UHGV virus genome: UHGV-0238489
Origin: a virus
Length of the DNA: 34,103 nt
Reading direction: 5' to 3' (one strand)
In this document: positions 1 to 33,896 of the stretch, piece after piece
How the letters are laid out: each line of letters begins with the position of its first letter
Numbering within the stretch: position 1 is the first letter of the stretch
The notes under the pieces: model-generated
Told to the model about the DNA's origin: nothing
The model's database searches: none
Seen by the model: only the letters and a program-made list of their open reading frames with translations
Program-made: the position numbers and the translations under genes

Positions 1-158
1 GAATATTTTTTGGTAAGCGTCAAATATGCGCGTTCTGGCTGTGCGTAGCCGGAACCTGTGGGAGCACGATGCCGATAAGTGAAAGGCATCGTGCTATGAA
101 GGAGGATTCTATCGATGTGGTCAATGGAAGACGGTTACCAGAGATAGGGCTTATGCAT

Positions 159-3068: not shown

Positions 3069-3344
3069 ATGAGTATCCGTATCGAGATAAATCATCAGTA
3101 TGTAGTTACAAGTGATCGCTACCAGTTCATTTTGCAGGAAAAGAAAGTGGCGACTGCTGGAAAAAATGAAGGTAGCGAATGGCTTGATACTGTCGGGTAT
3201 TATCCGACAATTCAAAAACTGGTTTCTGGTCTGGCGCTACATGACCTTTTAAATGGCGGTGCTGATAGTTTTGCGGCGTTGGGTGAGCAGGTCGAGCAGT
3301 TGGGGCTGCAATGTCAGACCGCGTTTTGTGCTGATGGTCGTTGA
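3069..3344 (+). CDS. hypothetical early protein (P2 orf82/83-like)
   Basis: A 91-aa ORF preceded by GGAGA and ending at the A start. Confidence 0.45.
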   Translation: MSIRIEINHQYVVTSDRYQFILQEKKVATAGKNEGSEWLDTVGYYPTIQKLVSGLALHDLLNGGADSFAALGEQVEQLGLQCQTAFCADGR

Positions 3345-5610
3345 GACTCGGGGGCGTATTGTCCCCTCGCTAGCCCTGCCAATATCTAAGCGCACCGGCG
3401 ATACTTTCGTTGGTGCTTATCCCTGGAATGCTCCCCGCGCTGCCATTGGCCGTGACAGACCCCTTACACGTGCCGAATTCCGTCAGGTGCAAGGTGTTTT
3501 ATACCGGATAGACCGCCTGCCTTTCTTTCTTAAGACGTTGTTTACATCCCGTTATAACTTCATTCGCCGCACAAAGAGCCCGCTCGGGGCGCTCTATTTC
3601 CTGAAAAACACCTTTGAGCGGAAGCTGTTGCCGCGTCTTGAGCGCGTTAACGAGCTGTGCGGGATGAATGAATCTGCGTCGAATGGTTTCTTGTCTGAGC
3701 GTGACGAATATGCGTGCTTGCCTGATATGAATGACAAAGAGCTGAAAAAATTTGCGGCCAGAATTGCCGCGCAGCTCTGGCGTAAATACGAGGAACTCAG
3801 CGACGAATGGGCTGAGGCTTTCGGCGGTAAAGAGACCCTTTTCACCGATGAGGCGCAGGCGCACATATATGGTCAGGTGGCCGGTGTTGCACACGCGTTC
3901 AACTTAACCCCGCTCTACTGGAAAAAATACCGTAAGGGTCAGATGACGATCCGCATGGCGTTTTCCGCTATTTCCCGTCTGATAAAAGATGATTGGTGGG
4001 TTAACCAGCTCAAGGCACAGCGTATGCGCTGGCGCGAGGCGCTGCTTATCGCTGCCGGTGAGGTCAACAAAGACCGTTCACCTTACGCAAGCAAAATGGC
4101 GATCCGCGAGGTTCACTCGCGCCGCTTGGCTAATCTCGAATATCTGAAATCCTGCGAACTGGAAAACAAAGTCACCGGCGAACGTATCGACCTTATCAGT
4201 AAAGTCATGGGGAGTATTTCAAACCCTGAAATACGCCGTATGGAGCTGATGAACACCATTGCCGGAATTGAACGCTACGCGGCCAGCGTTGGTGATGTGG
4301 GAATGTTTATCACGCTGACCACGCCGTCGAAGTATCACCCGACCCGACAGGTCGACAAAGGTGACAGCAAAATGGTGCAGCTGAATCACGGCTGGAACGA
4401 AACCGCATTCACCCCTAAAAACGGCCAGCGCTATCTGTGCCGAATCTGGAGTCTGATGCGCACCGCTTTCAAAGATAACGATTTGGAAGTGTATGGGATG
4501 CGCGTTGTCGAGCCGCACCACGACGGCACGCCACACTGGCATATGATGCTTTTTTGCAAACCCGGTCAGCGTAAAGCTATCAACGAAATTATGCGTCGTT
4601 ATGCCCTCAAAGAGGACGGACACGAAAAGGGTGCGGCAAAACAGCGCTTTGAGTCACGCCATCTTAATCAGGGCGGCGCGGCGGGTTATATCGCTAAATA
4701 CATTGCCAAAAATATCGACGGTTACGCTCTCGACGGTCAGCTCGACCACGACACTGGCAAGCCTCTGAAAGATACGGCCGCAGCCGTAACCGCATGGGCG
4801 TCTACATGGCGTATCCCTCAGTTTAAACCGATTGGCCTCCCGACAATGGGCGCTTACCGCGAACTCCGCAAGCTGCCGCGAGGGGTGAGTATCGCCAGCG
4901 AGTTTGACGACCGCGTCGAGGCCGTCCGGGCTGCTGCAGATGAGGGGGAGTTTGACCTGTATATCATCGCGCAGGGTGGGGCAAACAAGCCGCGCAATGC
5001 TCAGTCGGTCAGGGTCGCCCGTAGGGTGACGGATGAGGTTAACGAATACGAGGAAGATATCGATAGGGTGGTCGGTATTTATGCCCCTCACCTTGGGGTG
5101 AGCCGCGTACATGTAACCCGCACAGCGGAATGGCGCATCGTTCCCAAGGTTTTGGCTGTTGAGCCTTTGACCTTAAAAAGCGGCGCTGCCGCGCCTCGGA
5201 GTCCTGTCAATAACTGTGGAAAGCTCACTGGCGGTGATGATCCAGTTATGACACCCACACCGTCTGAACATGCTGCAGCGGTGTTAGATCTGATTGATAA
5301 AGGGCTTATCGCATGGGATGACCCCGAAGTTGTGACGGTGCTCAGGAGCGCATTAAAACACGGCGCGCCGCAGCAAAATCGACAGCAAAGAATAGATGAG
5401 CCATTAAAACCGCATCAGATAGCACCATCAGGACGAATGACAAAAGCCGAGAGGGCTCAGATTCCGCGCATCCGCTTCGGACTGGCGCAGCAGGGTATCA
5501 CGCCGCAGCGGTGGGAACTTCAGGCGCTGGCTCGTGGCGGAATAGTGGTTTATGGCGAAAAAAGATTTGTATACCCGATAGCGGACGAGTGGGTGAAGCA
5601 TGAGGGGTGA
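3334..5610 (+). CDS. A: rolling-circle replication initiator endonuclease (P2 A-like), 758 aa from the ATG at 3334
   Basis: ORF 3253-5610. The in-frame ATG at 3334 overlaps the upstream stop and gives about 758 aa (P2 A is about 761 aa). It carries a HUH-like motif (PHHDGTPHWHMMLF) and an AGYIAKYIAKN tyrosine motif typical of Rep-type relaxases. Confidence 0.85.
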   Translation: MVVETRGRIVPSLALPISKRTGDTFVGAYPWNAPRAAIGRDRPLTRAEFRQVQGVLYRIDRLPFFLKTLFTSRYNFIRRTKSPLGALYFLKNTFERKLLPRLERVNELCGMNESASNGFLSERDEYACLPDMNDKELKKFAARIAAQLWRKYEELSDEWAEAFGGKETLFTDEAQAHIYGQVAGVAHAFNLTPLYWKKYRKGQMTIRMAFSAISRLIKDDWWVNQLKAQRMRWREALLIAAGEVNKDRSPYASKMAIREVHSRRLANLEYLKSCELENKVTGERIDLISKVMGSISNPEIRRMELMNTIAGIERYAASVGDVGMFITLTTPSKYHPTRQVDKGDSKMVQLNHGWNETAFTPKNGQRYLCRIWSLMRTAFKDNDLEVYGMRVVEPHHDGTPHWHMMLFCKPGQRKAINEIMRRYALKEDGHEKGAAKQRFESRHLNQGGAAGYIAKYIAKNIDGYALDGQLDHDTGKPLKDTAAAVTAWASTWRIPQFKPIGLPTMGAYRELRKLPRGVSIASEFDDRVEAVRAAADEGEFDLYIIAQGGANKPRNAQSVRVARRVTDEVNEYEEDIDRVVGIYAPHLGVSRVHVTRTAEWRIVPKVLAVEPLTLKSGAAAPRSPVNNCGKLTGGDDPVMTPTPSEHAAAVLDLIDKGLIAWDDPEVVTVLRSALKHGAPQQNRQQRIDEPLKPHQIAPSGRMTKAERAQIPRIRFGLAQQGITPQRWELQALARGGIVVYGEKRFVYPIADEWVKHEG

Positions 5611-5728
5611 TTTATATCCATCTAAATCATGGTGTTATGATGGCTGTGTGAGTTCTTTTCTGATTGGGGCTGCGTTCGACGGCTTGAAATGTTGTAAATG
5701 CCCATAATCTGGTTTAAAGTGTTTTTAT

Positions 5729-5833
5729 GCCAACGACTAGGAGTATCTCCAGTCATAAATGTTGGCCTCTACAGGCCTTTATATAGTGTTGCTCTTGTAC
5801 TGCCTTCTCTTTCGAGAGAAGGTATGTACAAGA
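5729..5833 (+). ncRNA. candidate structured non-coding RNA upstream of the RT (possible retron msr/msd-like or RT-associated ncRNA)
   Basis: The 327-bp non-coding leader contains two strong hairpins: 5729-5766 (gccaac...gttggc enclosing ggag-tat-ctcc) and 5793-5833 (a 17-18-bp stem, tcttgtac..ccttctct / agagaagg..gtacaaga, with a ttcg loop). I found no clear a1/a2 inverted repeat. Confidence 0.3.
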
Positions 5834-5936
5834 AGTAAAGCCTGCGAAGGGAGGGTGTCTGGGGTGAGGAAAGACTGAGAGTTAAAGCATTCATCTTAGA
5901 ATCCATTCAACTCAAAAAACAAAAGCCCAGCCAACG

Positions 5937-6926
5937 ATGAAACCCCTTAGTCTCGAAAAAGCCTTCAATATCGCATTCTTCGAAAAAGATTCCTTTCAAA
6001 ACTTTCTTTCGTTTGAACCATTTCAACAAACTAAATTTATAACCTTTGATGAAAGGTTAATTGCTGAGCCCAGTTCTAAACTAAAAGAGTATCACAAATT
6101 CATAAATGAATTTGTTCTTTCATACTTGAAAGTAAATAAGGATGTTGTGTTTTCGTATAGAAAAGGAAGCAGCACTTATGATGCAGTAAAACTTCATGCC
6201 TGTAGTAAGATATTCTTCAATACTGATATTAAAAACTTTTTCCCGTCGATAACTCGTGAATATGCACGATCAGTTTTAGTTGATAACTTATCGAACGTTC
6301 CCATTTCCGATTTAAATATACATCTGGATAAAATTTTAGATTATATTATTATCGATAATTCGTTGCCTGTAGGGTTCCCAACATCACCAGCTTTCAGCAA
6401 TGCCTGTTTATATGACTTTGATGTTGAGATGCAGCAATATTGTATTAACCATGAATATATATTCACGCGCTATTCAGATGATATTATTATTTCCTCTGAA
6501 AATGATGAGGGGTTTGAGAATATTAATTCTGTAGTAAGTGACCTGCTGGGTGAGTTTGGGAATGGGCATTTCAAACTAAACTCAGCAAAAACTAAATTGA
6601 TTAAAAAAGGCAGTAAGATTAAGCTGCTGGGGATGGTTATTTTACCATCTCAGATAGTCTCTGTTGATATTAAAATAAAAAGAAAACTTGAGCATTTAAT
6701 TCATTTTTATGTAACGGATAAAGATAAATTTATAGATTCTATAATAAAAGATCCTAAAGTTAAAACTAGCGGATTGAATAATAGCGAGATTTTGGAAAAG
6801 GGTGTTAATACAGTTTCTGGTCTTTTAAATCATATAAACACAATTGATAAGAGTTATCTCGATAAGCTAAAGAGAAAATACGGAAATACGATTGTCGATA
6901 TGCTTTTTTACAAGAATGTTAATTAA
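5937..6926 (+). CDS. reverse transcriptase, 329 aa (retron-type or Abi-type defence RT)
   Basis: RT motifs are readable in the translation: motif A NTDIKNFFPSI, motif B' LPVGFPTSPAFSN, motif C YSDD (FTRYSDDIIIS), motif D/E LNSAKTKLI. A NAxxH-like YDAVKLH and a VTG-like VSG are present. AT-rich codon usage contrasts with the phage backbone. Confidence 0.8.
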   Translation: MKPLSLEKAFNIAFFEKDSFQNFLSFEPFQQTKFITFDERLIAEPSSKLKEYHKFINEFVLSYLKVNKDVVFSYRKGSSTYDAVKLHACSKIFFNTDIKNFFPSITREYARSVLVDNLSNVPISDLNIHLDKILDYIIIDNSLPVGFPTSPAFSNACLYDFDVEMQQYCINHEYIFTRYSDDIIISSENDEGFENINSVVSDLLGEFGNGHFKLNSAKTKLIKKGSKIKLLGMVILPSQIVSVDIKIKRKLEHLIHFYVTDKDKFIDSIIKDPKVKTSGLNNSEILEKGVNTVSGLLNHINTIDKSYLDKLKRKYGNTIVDMLFYKNVN

Positions 6927-6927
6927 A

Positions 6928-8280
6928 ATGAAAATAAACATTGAGATCTCAAAAATCCAGCATGTTGAACATATGTCATTTGCTATTGATCTTTCTGAAA
7001 ATAAACTGACTTGCATTGTAGGAAAGAACGGTGCTGGAAAGACAACGTTAATCAAAGCAATTAAAAATTTACAATCAGCAGATACATTCATAAAGACATC
7101 TTCTAGATATATATTCAATCCTGACAGTAGCATAGTATATAATATTAATGATCAAAATATAGTATATGTCTATGATGAGAATTTGAAGGTAATAGACACT
7201 AAGCAAATAATTCCAGCAGATATTAAATCCAATCTTTATGTCGAGTTGCCCATTCCTCATGGAATGAGGTTCAATAACTTCCCAACACTTAGTAAAATTG
7301 ATACAGAACTTAGAAAAAGTATTGCGTTTGAAAACTATAGCGTTCCCGAGGATTTGATAAATATACTCAATGAGGTATATCAGTCTTCTTCTTACAATAA
7401 TCTTAAAGCATTTTCTGTAAAAAATGAAATTTTCTATTTCAGATTGAATGAGAACGGAACATACATAAGGGAGGATTACTTTAGCTCGGGTGAGTATTTC
7501 ATTTTGAATTTATTTAGAATGATTGAGCTCAAAAGAAAGTTCATTGTCATAGATGAGATAGATATATCACTAGACTCTTCGGCGCAAGTCCATCTTATAG
7601 CAGTGCTAAGGAAATATTGTCAGAGACACTCGGTGAATATTGTATTCACAACACATTCACTTGCTTTAATGCAAACGCTGAATGATGATGAATTGTACTA
7701 TATGTGCGAAAGTGATGCTGGAACTACAATTACAAATCGATCCTATAATTATATAAAAAGTACGCTTTTTGGATTTAAAGGATGGGATAAGTACATTCTT
7801 ACTGAAGATGAAGTTCTGCAAAACTTCTTAGAATATATAATTAATGCCTCTGGGAATGATTACTTCTACGAATACAAAATAATATATGTTGGTGGAGGAA
7901 CTAATGTCATTGATTTAATGCGTCGTAATGAGAGAGAGAGCTTTCTCACGACTCAACAGAATGTGATCTCAGTGTTAGACGGAGATCAATTAGGTCAAAG
8001 GCATGCTCGAGGTGAAAATATTTTATGCATACCTTTCCAAAGTGTTGAGAAGGATTTCTATCAAGCATACGGCCAAGATGAATCGATCCCGAGAATTACA
8101 ACTAGAGGTAACGATAAACTTGATAAGCAAGTTTATCGAGGGGTAGTGAAAACCTATAACAACGGTTGGGATGAAACTAGGGTTTTTGAATACCTTGAGA
8201 GGTTAAAGCCTGATGAGTGTGAGGCTTTCAGGCAAAAAATTAGAGCATTTCTCCAAAGAAATATTTCGCCAGAGGGTTGA
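6928..8280 (+). CDS. ABC-type ATPase with C-terminal Toprim-like domain (OLD-family-like nuclease ATPase), about 450 aa
   Basis: Walker A GKNGAGKTT, ABC signature-like FSSGEY, Walker B FIVIDEID, H-loop FTTHS. The C-terminus has a conserved acidic ILTEDE and a DxD VLDGDQ, as in Toprim. Start is 1 nt after the RT stop (alternative upstream ATGs at 6892 and 6916). Confidence 0.7.
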   Translation: MKINIEISKIQHVEHMSFAIDLSENKLTCIVGKNGAGKTTLIKAIKNLQSADTFIKTSSRYIFNPDSSIVYNINDQNIVYVYDENLKVIDTKQIIPADIKSNLYVELPIPHGMRFNNFPTLSKIDTELRKSIAFENYSVPEDLINILNEVYQSSSYNNLKAFSVKNEIFYFRLNENGTYIREDYFSSGEYFILNLFRMIELKRKFIVIDEIDISLDSSAQVHLIAVLRKYCQRHSVNIVFTTHSLALMQTLNDDELYYMCESDAGTTITNRSYNYIKSTLFGFKGWDKYILTEDEVLQNFLEYIINASGNDYFYEYKIIYVGGGTNVIDLMRRNERESFLTTQQNVISVLDGDQLGQRHARGENILCIPFQSVEKDFYQAYGQDESIPRITTRGNDKLDKQVYRGVVKTYNNGWDETRVFEYLERLKPDECEAFRQKIRAFLQRNISPEG

Positions 8281-8422
8281 ATATAAGCTTCGGGATCTCA
8301 TGCGTCTCTATCTGCATGAAATTGCATTTGATAATTCCTATTTTTCTCGTGAGCTGTGTCACGTTAGGCGCAGCTCAGGGCTCATAATGCACCTGCATTA
8401 AAACCGACCCATCAAGCGCGCA

Positions 8423-8441
8423 GGCGAGGCGGGGATAGCAC
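8423..8441. other. cos: cos site candidate (19-mer ggcgaggcggggatagcac)
   Basis: It differs by one base from the P2 cohesive-end sequence as I recall it (GGCGAGGCGGGGAAAGCAC). It lies in a GC-rich stretch between the accessory locus and Q, the position expected for P2 cos. Confidence 0.6.
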
Positions 8442-8577
8442 TGCGCGCCAGACGTGGTGACAGCCTTTATTTTTACGCACCTGAGCGCGTCGTGGTGGCG
8501 CTGTCGTTTTGCGGGTCGGCGCTGATGTTTGTCGGGCGGTTAGGGGGCGTGTGGTGCGTCTGAGGCGATCAGTGATG

Positions 8578-8598
8578 ATGCCGCCCGGAGGCGGCATT
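8578..8598. terminator. hairpin gccgcc-cgga-ggcggc followed by atttt (possible terminator of the accessory operon, or bidirectional)
   Basis: GC stem followed by a T-run on the plus strand, between cos and the Q stop. Confidence 0.35.
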
Positions 8599-8608
8599 TT
8601 GAGAGGAG

Positions 8609-9625
8609 TTATTCTGATTCGAGGCTGTAATCTTTGAAGCGGATCACCTCCATTCCGAGCCAGTCATTTATCTCTTTGAAACGCTCCTGCAGCGGCGTCA
8701 GTTCGTTACGCACAAACACCCGCGCCACCTTCTCAACGTCACCCATTGAACCAATATTCTCAGGCTTGCCGCCCATCAACTGAAACGGCACGCGGTGCGC
8801 ATCGAGCAGGTCGGCGGCGCTCACCTTTTTGATATTGAAAAAATCATCCTTCGTGGCGACTTCACTCAACGGCACAATTTTGATCCCGTCTGGCTTGCCG
8901 TTGGGCGCGTAGAAAAACAAATTTTTGAAATTCCCGAGTCCTTTCGAGTCGCGCATCGCGTTGCGGAGCGATTCAACGTCGGTACTGCTTTGCGCGGCGT
9001 CGGTGACGTACATGATGTATCCCGCGTGTGCGCCATTCTGGTAATACTTGCGGCGAAACAGGGTGGCGGATTCATTCAGCCAGGCGGAATTTAGCGCGCT
9101 CAGGTATTCCGGCATCCCGTACAGCTCCTGATTGATATCAGGCTCAAGCAGATGACACACCGAGCCGGGGGCGAACGGGTGCGGCTGGGTGTAGCTCGAC
9201 ACGTACCAGTAAACGCCATCCTCGACACCCCGGCGGGTGTATTTAGCTGGTGAAGTTTCCAGCTTTAAGAGCTGGCCGGTGACGCTCATGCGCTTCTCAA
9301 GGTAGCCGTTGGCAAATACCAGATAATCGAGTACCAGGCGGCTGAAGTCCTGACGTGACAGCAACGGGTGCGGAATGTAGGTGCTAACCAGAATGTTACG
9401 TTTCACGTAAATCGGGGAACTGTGATGGACGGCGGCGCGCAGGCTTTTTGCCAGTCCCGAGAAGTTGACCGGCGGCTCGTACCATTTCCCGTTATGGATA
9501 CATTCGACGTAATCGAGAATATCGCGGCGATCCAGAACCGGGGAAGGCTCACCAAAAGTAAACGCCTCCATTTTTTGCGGTGCGCTGGCGGTCATTGTGA
9601 CGGGTTTCGTCTGTCGTTTTTTCAT
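8609..9625 (-). CDS. Q: portal protein (P2 Q-like), 338 aa
   Basis: Length and position next to cos, convergent with the terminase gene. Forms the leftward late operon Q-P. Confidence 0.85.
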   Translation of the reverse strand: MKKRQTKPVTMTASAPQKMEAFTFGEPSPVLDRRDILDYVECIHNGKWYEPPVNFSGLAKSLRAAVHHSSPIYVKRNILVSTYIPHPLLSRQDFSRLVLDYLVFANGYLEKRMSVTGQLLKLETSPAKYTRRGVEDGVYWYVSSYTQPHPFAPGSVCHLLEPDINQELYGMPEYLSALNSAWLNESATLFRRKYYQNGAHAGYIMYVTDAAQSSTDVESLRNAMRDSKGLGNFKNLFFYAPNGKPDGIKIVPLSEVATKDDFFNIKKVSAADLLDAHRVPFQLMGGKPENIGSMGDVEKVARVFVRNELTPLQERFKEINDWLGMEVIRFKDYSLESE

Positions 9626-17682: not shown

Positions 17683-18035
17683 AAACTCTAAGGTGATCCG
17701 TTAACAAAGGATTGAAAGGAACACCTTCCTTTTTATTCCCTAGATTTTATGCATTTAGTACTATTCTGCTCTTCCGGATACTACAAGTTTGGTTCTTAGC
17801 TCTAAGTTCTTGAGACCTCTCTTAATGAAAATACTAGTAAGAATGATGTTGTTCGTATCTTAATTTATTGTTATGTTTGGTTTTTTAGAGCTGTGGATGT
17901 TATCGTGATAACATCCTTAAGAACTCGATTTATCTATGATTTTTATGCTTCCGGAGGGCTTAAAAGTGCGTAATGAAATGGACTTTATTTGATTATTCAA
18001 TTTGGTATATGGTGTGTGCAAAACATTAATACAAT

Positions 18036-19853
18036 ATGGCGAATGGAATAAAGTTTAAAATGAATTTTATAAATAAAATGCTTAGATCGACTACTATAGA
18101 CTTTAAGAGAAAAACCTTTTATCTAGATTTTCTATTTCTTTTTGTTTGTGTTTGGACGCTTATCTCTTCTGGTTCTGAAGTTCAATATTATCTTTTTAAA
18201 TTTATTGGTAGTGATAGTTCCACCCTTTACGGCAGCGTCTTTGAAGATGCTATAGCCCGGATGCCTACATTTAATCAATATATAAAGGGTGCTTACACAG
18301 TCTCTGGTAATTTCGGTTTTATTGCTGCGCTGCTTATAGTCGCTGTGTCTTTGTTTTATCAGAGTGCGATACAGGTGTTTATCGTTTGTGTTATTAGTTC
18401 AGTGTTTGGATTGACGATAACAGATATTGTTATGTTCGTTTTTAACGATACTCTAACTACGCAATCAGTTACTGAAAGCATAATTGCGAATACATTGGGT
18501 TCGCCTATAATTGCAAGTTTCGTTGTTTTCCTGTTTTGTATAAAAAAGATTCTCTTTGGGGCTGTTAATGTTAATTTAGCTTTTCGCTTTGTTATGAGTT
18601 ATATAGTTTATGTTTTATTGTGTTCTTTAATATTATTGATTACTTACTACGTTGTATGTTTTTTCTACAGACCAACAGCTGTAAATTTTTCTGTATCAAC
18701 TTCAGAAGATTTTTCAGGGGATTATTTTATTACGCAAAAAGATAAGGCCTCGAAAAAAGACGACCCTGAGAAACAAAAACGCTTTTCATTGTTAGGTTCT
18801 CCCGTTGAAATAAATGAGTCTGTACGTGTTTATGGAGACATTAAAACTATAAGGTCAAAAACACATGAAAATGAAACCTTTAATTTAAAAATACTACCAT
18901 TACTTAATTGCATAGATGGCAGTTCAGTTAACGCTGCATCATCTAGATCTTTAACGTATAGCAATGTGAAAAATTTATCCATTAAATCGTCCGAGCTCAT
19001 CTCAATACTACTTATAAATGACAAGGTTGGTCATGTTAAAAGTAGTGACGAGCTTGTAAATATGTTTTCTGTTAAAAAGAATGACAGAAATGGATTTGAT
19101 GTTACAAAAATTAATGATGGTGCTTTTAGTTATTATCCATCCGAGTCTAACGCCGGGTTCTATATGGCTACGCCAGTGTCGGAATTTACAGGGGATCAAG
19201 CCAAGAAGATTGTCCAATATACATTGGATATTGATGGCGCTGAAAAAACAATTAGCGTTGAAGTTGAAAGGCTACGTTCAATAAATAAAGATAAGAAAAT
19301 GCACTGCGAAGTTGCATCTTTCAGAGATTCTGACGGTGATATTAACATAAAGGCTGATGAATCTGTATATCTTGGTCTTCTTGTTAAGATGGAATCAGAA
19401 GAGGAGAAGGAATTCTACTCACTTTTTAATGAAGATAATAGCAAAATTGTAGTGGATGGAAATTTACTATATGTCCAGGCTCAAAAAGTTCCGAAAGAAG
19501 ATTTGCTTGGGAAGTATTTTGTTAAAGGTTATCTGGATGGATTTATTCTCCATTCATTTGATAAATTATCATTAGATGGGAGAAATGTAGAGTCTAATAA
19601 GATGGATAACCTGATGGTCATGGGTGATGATATATATGCAAGTGTATCTGATGGGACTAACTTGGTAATAAGCGGTAGGGCTGATCTTTTTTATAAAAAT
19701 AGGCTACGGCAAAATAAAACATTATGGGAGTCGTCAAGTGATAATACGCTAATACTTGGCGGGCTTGGTGGATTGCTGGTTTCATTATTGTTGTGGGGAA
19801 GTAATAAAATTTTTACAACTCTACGTAAAAATGAAGTTATTAATATGTTTTAA
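18036..19853 (+). CDS. polytopic membrane protein of unknown function, 605 aa; cargo gene in an AT-rich island between S and V
   Basis: About five N-terminal TM helices, a roughly 350-aa hydrophilic domain and a C-terminal TM (LILGGLGGLLVSLLLWG). Strongly AT-rich codon usage unlike flanking phage genes. I recognise no catalytic motif. Confidence 0.6.
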   Translation: MANGIKFKMNFINKMLRSTTIDFKRKTFYLDFLFLFVCVWTLISSGSEVQYYLFKFIGSDSSTLYGSVFEDAIARMPTFNQYIKGAYTVSGNFGFIAALLIVAVSLFYQSAIQVFIVCVISSVFGLTITDIVMFVFNDTLTTQSVTESIIANTLGSPIIASFVVFLFCIKKILFGAVNVNLAFRFVMSYIVYVLLCSLILLITYYVVCFFYRPTAVNFSVSTSEDFSGDYFITQKDKASKKDDPEKQKRFSLLGSPVEINESVRVYGDIKTIRSKTHENETFNLKILPLLNCIDGSSVNAASSRSLTYSNVKNLSIKSSELISILLINDKVGHVKSSDELVNMFSVKKNDRNGFDVTKINDGAFSYYPSESNAGFYMATPVSEFTGDQAKKIVQYTLDIDGAEKTISVEVERLRSINKDKKMHCEVASFRDSDGDINIKADESVYLGLLVKMESEEEKEFYSLFNEDNSKIVVDGNLLYVQAQKVPKEDLLGKYFVKGYLDGFILHSFDKLSLDGRNVESNKMDNLMVMGDDIYASVSDGTNLVISGRADLFYKNRLRQNKTLWESSSDNTLILGGLGGLLVSLLLWGSNKIFTTLRKNEVINMF

Positions 19854-19864
19854 GTTTTTTGAAA

Positions 19865-19885
19865 GGGCGGGTAATACCGCCATTT
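19865..19885 (+). terminator. hairpin gggcgg-gtaata-ccgcc followed by a weak T-tract, downstream of the membrane-protein ORF
   Basis: Stem-loop directly after the stop at 19853. Confidence 0.35.
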
Positions 19886-20014
19886 CATATGGGTTGTACG
19901 GTTTTGTTTAATTGTAATTGCATCTTGCTCTCTAGTTAACATATTGCAAATCATTATTGTCTTAGATGTTTATATTAAACTGTATTCAAATTTCTATTAA
20001 TTATTTTTGTTTTC

Positions 20015-31980: not shown

Positions 31981-33896
31981 GTATGTGCGCCGGGCATGGC
32001 GCGTAGCGCCGTGACTGGCGCTGTTCTTCAACTGTGGTGGCTGAAGAACGACTAAGAGGTGAAAGTCCTCCACACACCCGGTGAGGGGAAGTGTTAGCGG
32101 AAGGCAAGGGTGTTCATCGCGAGGTGAAATCTGAAGGAAGCCGGATGCAAAATGCTGGCCTGACGAACAGGAAGCGGTTAAGGCGGCGCAGCGGGGTAAG
32201 GTGGCATACATCACCAAAGCCCGATACTCACACGGAACGCTGTGACGTAGAGCCGACAGGCATAAGCAGGAAAGTCGCGCGAATTACCCCGGGAGATCTG
32301 CCGTCCTGTCAGTGTGCTACCGGCGTCGTAAGGTGCCGGGATGGGGCGGCAGAAGTCAGCCGACGCTGTAGTAGTGCTGCAAAACCGGCAGCATGAAGGG
32401 CCGAACATGATTAACCGTGATTAGGACATCCGAACCCGATGATGATTAATGAAGCACAAGCGCAGGCAACTGCGGCCAGCGGCAGAGGAGACGGACGGTA
32501 TCCGTCAGGGCTGCATGATGGCGCTGAAATCAGCACGGCGGCGGGTGGGCAAACGAAAGCGGAAGTGCCGCTGACGATGGAAGCGGTGATAACGAGAGAA
32601 AACCTGATGCTGGCTTATCAGCGCGTGGTGGAAAACAAAGGCGCGGCGGGGGTGGATAACCTCAGCGTGGCGGAGTTGAAACCGTGGCTGAAGAAGAACT
32701 GGCGCAGTGTCAGGCAGGCATTGATTGACGGAAACTACCAGCCGCGGGCAATACGCCGGATGGATATCCCGAAGCCGGATGGCGGCGTGAGAATCTTAGG
32801 CATCCCGACGGTGGTGGACAGGCTTATCCAGCAGGCGATAGCGCAGCAGTTAAGCGCCATCGTGGACAAAAGCTTCTCAGACTCCAACGGCTTCCGGCCG
32901 GGGCGCAACGCATGGCAGGCGGTGCAACAGGCACAGCGTTACATACGGGGCGGCAAACGGTGGGTGGTGGATATGGATCTGGAGAAGTTCTTTGACCGGG
33001 TGGATCACAGACTCCTGATGACGCGTCTGGCCAGAACGATAAAGGACAGGCGGGTGCTGAGACTGATACGCCGCTACCTGAAAGCGGAAATAGTCCGGGA
33101 CGGGCAAAGGGAGAAACGGCAGGAGGGCATGCCGCAGGGCGGCCCGCTGTCGCCGTTACTGTCGAACATCCTGCTGGATGAACTGGATAAAGAACTGGAG
33201 CGTCGTTGACACAGCTTCTGCCGCTACGCAGACGACTGCAACATCAACGTAAGCAGCCGGAAAGCGGGCGACCATCTGCTGAAGAACATCAGGGCGTTCG
33301 TGGAGAACAAAATGAAACTGAAGGTGAATGAGAAGAAGAGCGCGGTGGCGCGCCCGTGGGAGCGGAAGTTCCTCGGGTACAGTGTGACATGGCACAAACA
33401 GGCGAAGCTGAAAATAGCCCTGACGAGCGTGAACAGGCTGAAGGAGAAAGTCCGCAGTCTGACCACGGGAAACCGGAGCAAATCAGTGAAAGCGACAATC
33501 AATGCCCTGACGCCAGTGCTGCGTGGATGGATAAGCTACTTCAGGCTGACGGAAGTCAGAGGAGTGCAGGAAGAGCTGGACGGCTGGATCAAACGGAAAC
33601 TGCGGTGCCTGTTGTGGCGGCAGTGGAAGAGGCCGGGAACCCGGACGAAGAACCTGCAAAGAGCGGGGCTGAGTAAGGACAGGGCGATGATCTCAGCGTA
33701 CAACAACCATGGGCCATGGTGGAACTCAGGGTCAAGCCATATGAATCAGGCGATAAAGAATGCGTGGTTCAGCAGGCAGGGTCTGATATCACTGCTGGAA
33801 CAGCAGAGGCAGTTCCAGTGTTAACATGAACCGCCGTATGCGGAGCCGCATGTACGGTGGTGTGAGAGGACGGCGGGAGTGATCCCGCCTCCTACT
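31981..33896 (+). mobile_element. group II intron (bacterial, class C-like), about 1.9 kb, inserted just after an intrinsic terminator
   Basis: GTGCG-like 5' end at 31986. An RT/maturase ORF sits inside. Domain V-like hairpin at about 33829-33860 (ccgtatgcgg-agc-cgcatgtacgg) and a domain VI-like bulged hairpin at about 33864-33895. Insertion after a terminator stem-loop is typical of IIC introns. Boundaries are approximate (about +/-10 nt). Confidence 0.7.
32439..33824 (+). pseudogene. group II intron-encoded RT/maturase interrupted by a single in-frame TGA (33207-33209)
   Basis: ORFs 32439-33209 and 33300-33824 are in the same frame. The sequence reads ...LDELDKELERR-TGA-HSFCRYADDCNINV..., so the stop replaces the codon just before the YADD motif. 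RT motifs (GIPTVVDRLIQQA, LPQGGPLSPLLSNILL) precede a maturase-like C-terminus. Confidence 0.7.

Follow-up and report, generated by a model that had tools for sequence, protein, structure and literature searches.

A probable type I-B1 retron with an autonomous noncoding RNA as exchangeable cargo of a P2-like Escherichia coli prophage

To which family does the reverse transcriptase (RT) operon of the prophage UHGV-0238489 belong, and does the locus hold a complete system? The window analyzed here is the whole 34,103-nucleotide (nt) stretch of UHGV-0238489, with positions counted from its first letter, and represents a P2-like prophage integrated beside yegR. The original prediction, made from the sequence alone, placed an AT-rich two-gene operon between gene A and cos/Q, where P2 carries tin and old, and this placement is borne out by a drop in GC content and by the A and Q/cos flanks. 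We conclude, with a probability of roughly 0.8, that the island is a complete type I-B1 retron, composed of a noncoding RNA (ncRNA), an RT and an OLD-family protein, and that it resides as exchangeable cargo in the P2-like tin/old hotspot.

The first gene of the operon (5937–6926, plus strand) encodes a retron RT of 329 amino acids (aa) with an ATG start. The PADLOC model RT_I-B (PDLC02937) covers residues 3–328 of the 329 (E = 8e-111, 368 bits); RT_I-B, II-A and I-A are the top-ranking models, with the runner-up, II-A, reaching 172 bits. The Pfam family RVT_1 also matches the protein (E = 2e-18), and a sequence search of the Protein Data Bank (PDB) identifies the RTs of the type I-A retrons Ec78 and Ec83 as the closest solved ones (E = 1e-22 to 1e-19). 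The YSDD motif occupies residues 179–182 (encoded at 6471–6482), and R178, Y179, D181 and D182 are invariant among 26 homologs. By contrast, the NAxxH- and VTG-type residues that had been claimed for this protein stand only in part: H87 and G232 are retained, neither of them varying within the family, but the remainder is degenerate, the corresponding positions reading AVKLH and LLG. Within NAxxH, conservation is highest at the H (Mestre et al. 2020, PMC7736814).

The second gene starts 1 nt past the RT stop (AAT TAA a ATG), and both open reading frames (ORFs), including the 329-aa RT with its YSDD, are as originally described. The effector ORF (6928–8280) encodes 450 aa from this ATG, with an alternative, longer TTG start possible at 6892. 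Profile searches of both proteins had been proposed as a check and yield full-length retron I-B matches in both cases, the effector being matched by ATPase-Toprim_I-B (PDLC02914) over residues 1–443 of 450 at E = 1e-179. Its N-terminal ABC ATPase domain (6928–7737, plus strand) contains Walker A, encoded at 7021–7047, and Walker B, D209E210, at 7552–7557, and Pfam recognizes ABC ATPase families in it (AAA_21, E = 5e-16). Pfam reports no Toprim domain in this protein, and PDB sequence and profile searches return generic ABC ATPase motifs and no Toprim. Because these searches gave the ABC ATPase alone, we compared folds, and the assignment of the C-terminal OLD-type Toprim domain with its helical tail (7780–8280, plus strand; E293 at 7804–7806, D351-G-D353 at 7978–7986) rests on PADLOC and on a fold comparison with a separate domain model. 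An AlphaFold model of the full-length effector (predicted local distance difference test score, 86.5) finds the class 1 OLD nuclease of Thermus scotoductus (6p74) as its best Foldseek match, followed by the retron I-A PtuA and GajA. Among 44 effector sequences, Walker A (G32–T40), SGE (187–189), D209, E210 and H243 are invariant, as are E374 and, in the Toprim domain, E293 and D351-G352-D353; the Toprim motifs read TEDEVL at 292–297 (EDxxL, motif IV) and DGD at 351–353 (DxD, motif V). The effector thus combines the hallmarks of the OLD family, namely an N-terminal ABC ATPase in which Walker A, signature, Walker B and H-loop are all present, and a C-terminal Toprim fold with the catalytic Glu and DxD; the proposal of an ABC ATPase with a C-terminal Toprim-like E/DxD domain is supported by Pfam for the ATPase part, and by PADLOC, the fold comparison and the invariant residues. 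An E. coli entry at NCBI (P0139; 420 aa, annotated as 'partial') combines RVT_1 with ATPase Pfam domains, and 72% of its length aligns to the effector at 99% identity; it probably arose when a frameshift or an assembly error joined the 3' end of the RT to the effector.

These features place the locus within a described retron subtype. In type I-B1, a clade-1 RT is paired with an ABC ATPase-Toprim protein carrying EDxxL (motif IV) and DxD (motif V), whereas type I-B2, to which Retron-Eco8 belongs, has a clade-3 RT and the motif EGxxE (Mestre et al. 2020, PMC7736814, Table 1 for I-B1); clade 1 RTs are common to I-A, I-B1 and II-A1 (PMC7736814). Furthermore, the two subtypes differ in where old is placed relative to the RT: downstream in I-B1 (Class 3B OLD) and upstream in I-B2 (Class 3A) (PMC10568477). 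The EDxxL and DxD motifs, the downstream effector and the I-A-like RT therefore make the window system I-B1 rather than Eco8-like. Like type I-B1 and Class 3B OLD (PMC7736814, PMC10568477), it has an RT, probably of clade 1, followed by an ABC ATPase-Toprim protein, both matched over their full length by PADLOC I-B models, and a structured ncRNA beside the RT, and the window locus shows no subtype-defining difference. The likeness to type I retrons with OLD-family effectors noted at the outset is thus confirmed by the I-B models that match both proteins, whereas the suggestion that this exact pairing may be undescribed is not: it is already catalogued as subtype I-B1 (PMC7736814) and Class 3B OLD (PMC10568477), and PADLOC holds hidden Markov models (HMMs) for it. 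No I-B1 member was among the retrons described in 2020 (PMC7736814). The pairing is also widespread. When each species was scanned through a single genome, 80 loci were obtained, and in about 65 of them a full-length effector homolog (33–89% identical) begins within about 50 nt after the RT homolog; these paired loci come from Gamma-, Beta- and Epsilonproteobacteria, Bacteroidota and metagenome-assembled genomes of Firmicutes. Relative to the Erwinia homologs, the ratio of nonsynonymous to synonymous substitution rates (dN/dS) is about 0.06 for the RT and 0.07 for the effector, showing that both genes are under strong purifying selection.

With regard to the RNA component, canonical a1/a2 repeats are absent, as had been reported initially, but a conserved structured ncRNA upstream of the RT had been missed. 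It was revealed by aligning the regions upstream of RT homologs, where a near-invariant 21-nt motif, CGACTAGGAGTATCTCCAGTC (5734–5754 in the window), recurs 105–400 nt upstream of the RT start. With a covariance model built on 41 sequences (alignment A2; the 65-sequence alignment is referred to as A3), each of 65 loci yields exactly one match, adjoining the RT, at E-values between 7e-21 and 2e-3. The match in the window, at 5726–5848 on the plus strand, is the third best of the 65 (96.5 bits, E = 3e-20), and we place the msr/msd-like ncRNA of about 115 nt at about 5727–5844 (plus strand), with an approximate 3' end. No Rfam family matches this region, and the conserved ncRNA presumably corresponds to the 'IB1' structural family of Mestre et al. 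(PMC7736814, Supplementary Fig. S1). The spacer between ncRNA and RT, 105–400 nt long, is taken up by short tandem repeats in some loci, such as (CTCAGCACT)n in one from Shewanella and (CCAGCT)n in one from Pseudomonas (L024, ~3660–3900; L028, ~3700–3990).

The ncRNA consists of four elements on the plus strand. Stem P1 with its enclosed hairpin H1 spans 5729–5766, P1 being formed by GCCAAC (5729–5734) and GTTGGC (5761–5766), and H1 (5735–5754) by GACTAGGAG-TAT-CTCCAGTC. A conserved single-stranded linker (5766–5788) follows, with a CCTCTAC box at 5766–5772 and an invariant A5781 within TTTAT, and leads into a long, variable msd-like hairpin (5789–5838), recognized by its pair counts and covariation, with a base of the TTAC/GTAA type (TTGCT/AGTAA in the window). 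In the 65-sequence alignment, 96% of the cells of the 5 modeled P1 pairs are paired, and all 5 pairs have changes on both sides; across the family, this stem of 5–6 base pairs (bp) is swapped for CCAG/CTGG, GTCAG/CTGAC or GCTAG/CTAGC. H1 has 8 pairs, formed in 100% of the cells; both partners change in 3 of these pairs, and 4 do not vary. For the long hairpin, the 6 core pairs are 98% paired, all with compensatory changes, and the base pairs are paired in 70–87%; of the 43 loci with the motif that were analyzed, most have a hairpin of 11–29 bp in this position. For the structure as a whole, 93% of cells are paired compared to 79% in shuffles, and the covariation score of 0.449 exceeds that of shuffles (0.185; 0 of 500 as high) and of slid partners (at most 0.10). 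In a test of cognate against non-cognate duplexes, P1 reached −6.7 versus −3.0 kcal/mol and the long hairpin −20.0 versus −7.6 kcal/mol. Conservation extends to the linker, where T5770 and A5781 are invariant in A2 (41 sequences), and in A3, A5781 and the CTA within the box reach 90% conservation or more. On the 3' side of the long hairpin, a test for a further conserved element, either a small hairpin or a terminator, was negative (mean z, −0.3).

Upstream of the ncRNA lies a candidate sigma-70 promoter (5692–5720, plus strand), with a −35 TTGTAA at 5692–5697, a 17-nt spacer and a −10 TAAAGT at 5715–5720. The hexamers of the window itself are weak, matching at 8 of 12 positions, and a generic promoter scan did not detect them. 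Family-wide, T at −35 is conserved at 86%, T−12 at 73%, A−11 at 83%, T−7 at 81% and A+1 at 89%, and 49 of 64 loci fit the pattern TTG-16..18-TAnnnT-5..8-A. From this conserved promoter directly upstream, we infer that the RNA should start at A5727, 3 nt before P1. In addition, 11 of the 65 loci encode ncRNA and RT on opposite strands, and the ncRNA is therefore an independent transcription unit. In these inverted loci (L013, L019, L025, L030, L033, L041, L047, L048, L050, L066 and L072), the ncRNA lies directly upstream of, and divergent from, the RT, and the base of the hairpin reads CUAC...GUAG, not UUAC...GUAA. The ncRNA is thus the one unexpected result of this analysis: it is autonomous, sometimes inverted with respect to the RT, and devoid of a1/a2 and of an assignable branching G.

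The lack of priming elements holds across the family. We sought a1/a2 in four ways, with P1 and the long hairpin as positive controls, both of which were strongly cognate-specific. Pairing of the upstream region with everything downstream was no better than in the control; cognate pairing of the 5' tail and P1 arm with the 3' flank was no better than non-cognate; the linker paired with the 3' flank no better than the control, the best candidate helix being just 53% paired; and pairing of the CCUCUA box with the 3' flank equaled that of shuffled controls (p = 0.89). The ncRNA alignment has no invariant unpaired G. In the window alone, CAGGC(C)TTTA (5772–5781) can pair with TAAAGCCTG (RNA UAAAGCCUG) at 5836–5844, a pairing that competes with the hairpin base. 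The stem closing the minimum free energy fold of 5700–5936 (TGTTTTT, 5720–5726, with AAAAACA, 5915–5921) was rejected as a1/a2 because its 5' arm reads TAGCTTT in an 88%-identical Erwinia locus, with the 3' arm unchanged, and because the 5' arm falls between the −10 box and the inferred transcription start. Retron-Kva1 (clade 1, 'non-canonical ncRNA') was likewise rejected as a family member, its ncRNA having a normal a1/a2.

Comparison with type I-A ncRNAs, for which the canonical I-A retron among our loci (L074) and the clade-1 ncRNAs in the supplement of the retron census (PMC10849725) served as references, defines what is shared and what is missing. The SL2 stem (GUC...GAC) and the long msd hairpin followed by G-UAA are recognizably common to both, and the type I-A L1 linker (GAC-TCTAA-TTTATTGA; UCUAA-UUUAUUGA) resembles the CCUCUAC...UUUAU linker of I-B1. 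By contrast, type I-A ncRNAs have an a1–branching G–SL1 part at the 5' end and a full a2 at the 3' end, of which the former is missing and the latter mostly absent in I-B1, and SL2 is expanded in I-B1 by the near-invariant H1.

The retron census contains two ncRNAs of the I-B1 family, Terminal 308 and Terminal 314 (PMC10849725, file 3). Terminal 308 contains the full element, and a sequenced RT-DNA is given for it even though its yield is scored as '0 by PAGE' (polyacrylamide gel electrophoresis). This RT-DNA, 116 nt long with one deletion, is the reverse complement of an ncRNA stretch that begins at the G of the 5' AUG and ends with the final A of GUAAAAAA; it continues through H1 as far as RNA nucleotide 3 instead of ending at the usual point past the linker. 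The cloned version of Terminal 314 lacked P1/H1, and no RT-DNA was obtained from it. The census constructs are heterologous and T7-driven, lack the effector and have ncRNA ends set by prediction; Terminal 308 is not among the related loci that we collected, and its effector type is not confirmed. The census RT-DNA nevertheless shows that the family ncRNA can be copied into complementary DNA (cDNA).

Could the locus, then, belong to the I-B1 family and yet not be a classical retron, with an autonomous RNA, no 2'-OH branching-G priming, cDNA that is conditional or of another form (e.g., near full-length), and a sensor logic unlike that of guard models based on multicopy single-stranded DNA (msDNA)? 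The family-level a1/a2 pairings, which do not exceed controls, the promoter-defined 5' end 3 nt before P1, the ncRNAs opposite in strand to the RT, the absence of the a1–branching G–SL1 part found in L074, and the two census members scored '0 by PAGE', with an RT-DNA reaching RNA nucleotide 3, all speak in favor of this. However, the RT has close relatives among type I-A RTs, for which a branching G serves as the priming site; the RNA retains its SL2-like stem, a linker containing the invariant A, and the long hairpin, as would be expected for normal RT binding and termination; and the census evidence comes from heterologous, T7-driven constructs with predicted ends, one of them lacking P1/H1 and the other of unconfirmed effector type. 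On balance, we regard a non-classical mode as possible but rather unlikely. If the ncRNA begins at the SL2-like stem, cDNA priming would be of a kind new for retrons or would occur only on infection. In that case, I-B1 might have lost the a1–branching G–SL1 module of its I-A and II-A1 relatives, leaving a free-standing ncRNA gene that begins at the SL2-like stem, with cDNA priming of an undescribed kind or restricted to infection and the nuclease under the control of an RT-RNA complex instead of constitutive branched msDNA, a scenario that we put forward tentatively and hold to be doubtful.

The second part of our reading, that the I-B1 retron is exchangeable hotspot cargo, rests on its genomic setting. 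The island, about 2.8 kb long, extends from 5570 to 8348 as delimited by the GC drop and by breaks in homology: GC content is 0.29–0.37 across ~5750–8250 and 0.50–0.60 on either side, homology of P2-like A genes breaks off near 5540–5570 (1,603 E. coli genomes with P2-like A genes), and backbone homology with other P2-like prophages picks up again at 8349–8388. On the left, it adjoins the P2 A-type replication endonuclease gene (3253–5610), and on the right, the portal gene Q (8609–9625, minus strand). The right-hand landmark of the hotspot is a P2-type cos at 8424–8442, read directly as GGCGAGGCGGGGATAGCAC, which we take to be P2 cos by its cohesive-end consensus. A 10-bp inverted repeat, TGATTTATAT/ATCTAAATCA, at 5608–5629 overlaps the stop of gene A at the left island edge and could act as a terminator or mark a boundary of recombination. 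The interval from gene A to cos thus contains what defines hotspot cargo (Rousset et al. 2022), namely variable genes of low GC content. Retrons are included among P2 hotspot cargo (Rousset et al. 2022), although the retron I-B1 system is not found in the supplementary tables of that study to the extent available here.

The prophage of E. coli strain A15, the locus of which is present in RefSeq, is 99.9% identical to the window over the island segment. Overall, the cassette is rare, occurring in 10 of 5,426 complete E. coli genomes. In the other 9 E. coli genomes, it is about 98% identical, whereas the adjoining portal gene is just 81–82% identical and the 3' end of gene A 90–95% (compared over 5150–5610 and 8349–8800). 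The cassette therefore moved between P2-like backbones, and the flanking identities indicate that the cargo is exchanged by recombination between different backbones of this type. Neither the cassette nor the effector was found in the deposited phage genomes searched; family members are present on a few plasmids. Retrons Ec67 and Ec86 of 186-related prophages were reportedly recognized by Dodd and Egan in 1996 as cargo of the P2/186 family, located in the stretch that separates cos from the early operon's end. Ec67 is a type I-C retron with an RT-Toprim fusion and Ec86 is of type II-A, both with canonical ncRNAs.

The rarity of the cassette, together with the weak promoter hexamers of the window and the degenerate signature motifs, might be taken to mean that it is decaying or non-functional cargo with no current role. 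Yet both ORFs are intact with all catalytic residues kept, dN/dS is ~0.06–0.07, the ncRNA ranks third of 65 against the family model, and the cassette stays ~98% conserved across different prophage backbones, which together make decay distinctly improbable.

A further alternative is a Retron-Eco8-type system (I-B2, Class 3A OLD) that senses phage SSB, a protein that binds single-stranded DNA. The general architecture is alike, Eco8 also consisting of an RT, an ncRNA and an OLD-family ABC ATPase-Toprim effector. However, the gene order is opposite, with the effector downstream here and upstream in I-B2; motif IV is EDxxL and not EGxxE; and the Eco8 RT, of clade 3, is a distant match in the PDB sequence search (E = 1e-7 versus ~1e-20 for I-A RTs), as is the second RT_I-B model of PADLOC (115 bits versus 368 for the best). 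Searches by sequence and by profile did not recover the 750-aa Eco8 effector, which is also absent from the 50 best Foldseek matches, and the Eco8 ncRNA has a canonical a1/a2 with branching and opposing G, unlike that of the window. Membership in I-B2 is thus refuted by gene order, motif IV, and the RT and effector matches, and an Eco8-type system is highly improbable; phage SSB as a trigger shared with Eco8 is possible. A defense RT of the Abi-P2, UG or DRT type that happens to adjoin an ATPase, which the original prediction entertained in leaving the family open and which has a precedent at the same hotspot in the RT of P2-EC30 (Odegrip 2006, as cited by Rousset et al. 2022), is barely conceivable, since all 25 of the PADLOC matches listed for the RT are retron RT models, with no UG, Abi or DRT model among them and 368 versus 172 bits between the best two, a ranking that excludes this alternative, and since PDB matches above noise are retron RTs throughout and the ATPase-Toprim gene and a retron-like ncRNA accompany the RT closely and over a wide range of loci.

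Two better-known systems frame the I-B1 retron from either side. Retron-Eco7/Ec78 and Ec83 (type I-A: RT, PtuA ATPase and PtuB HNH) have the closest solved RTs (E ~1e-20), and PtuA ATPase heads are among the best structural matches to the effector, but the type I-A nuclease is a separate HNH protein, whereas the window effector carries a fused Toprim. P2 Old (Class 1 OLD), the occupant of the hotspot in phage P2, shares the ABC ATPase and Toprim architecture and fold but acts as a single gene without RT or ncRNA, in contrast to the window effector, which is always linked to both.

By analogy with Retron-Eco8 (I-B2) and with Retron-Eco7/Ec78 and Ec83 (I-A), the likely function of the I-B1 system is abortive-infection defense, in which an RT-RNA/cDNA complex would restrain a nuclease. 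In Eco8, RT, effector and msDNA form a 4:4:4 complex in which the msdDNA autoinhibits the OLD nuclease, and phage SSB binding frees non-specific DNA degradation; in Retron-Eco7/Ec83, PtuAB is restrained by RT-msDNA. Eco8 is thus a likely model for the restraint and release of a Toprim nuclease by cDNA. In the window system, RT and effector may be translationally coupled, the P1/H1 stem-loop would be bound by the RT, and the variable hairpin would be copied into cDNA. In the structure of Retron-Eco7, an L1 adenosine sits in the RT nucleotide site at termination, and A5781 is plausibly its equivalent. The resulting RT-RNA-cDNA complex would keep the ATPase-Toprim nuclease inactive until a phage factor binds, modifies or degrades the cDNA, or a phage-induced change to the RNA occurs; the freed nuclease would then cut DNA and abort the infection, so that the prophage and the population of lysogens would be shielded against phage competitors.

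Several observations weigh against the view of the island as a complete, defensive I-B1 retron. The retron signature motifs of the RT are degenerate (AVKLH for NAxxH, LLG for VTG), and the ncRNA has no canonical a1/a2 repeats and no assignable branching G. Terminals 308 and 314, tested without effector, yielded RT-DNA of '0 by PAGE' (PMC10849725); constitutive abundant msDNA can therefore not be assumed. No phage defense by any I-B1 member is reported in the literature searched. Finally, the effector has 450 aa compared to 750 aa in Eco8, with no detectable sequence similarity between the two, and thus the Eco8 assembly may not transfer.

Elsewhere in the window, a second AT-rich island (17700–19900, GC 0.31–0.36) contains a sole ORF (18036–19853, plus strand; 605 aa) placed between P2 S-like and V-like tail genes, i.e., at the position of P2 orf30. 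The encoded protein has neither a Pfam nor a PADLOC match and is a candidate for unknown prophage cargo. A second, unrelated RT lies at the right end of the window (32439–33824), past a GC dip at 31.2–32.2 kb. One ORF (32439–33209) matches RVT_1 (E = 4e-28) and another (33300–33824) the group II intron maturase family GIIM (E = 5e-22), and by these domain matches, the region looks like a group II intron-type RT split over two ORFs.

Identification of the locus as such is routine, given that PADLOC-type tools would call a retron I-B and that retrons are known cargo of the P2 hotspot. Its value lies in providing a convenient E. coli representative of the experimentally untouched retron subtype I-B1, which pairs the smallest OLD-type effector (450 aa) with an ncRNA without canonical priming elements. 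The cassette, ~98% identical across backbones that are ~81% identical, also offers a clean example of defense cargo swapping at a hotspot. A possible yield is a compact, separately promoted ncRNA scaffold for retron engineering. The priming of the RT and the restraint of the minimal ATPase-Toprim protein, if worked out, would extend the models established for Eco8 and Ec78.

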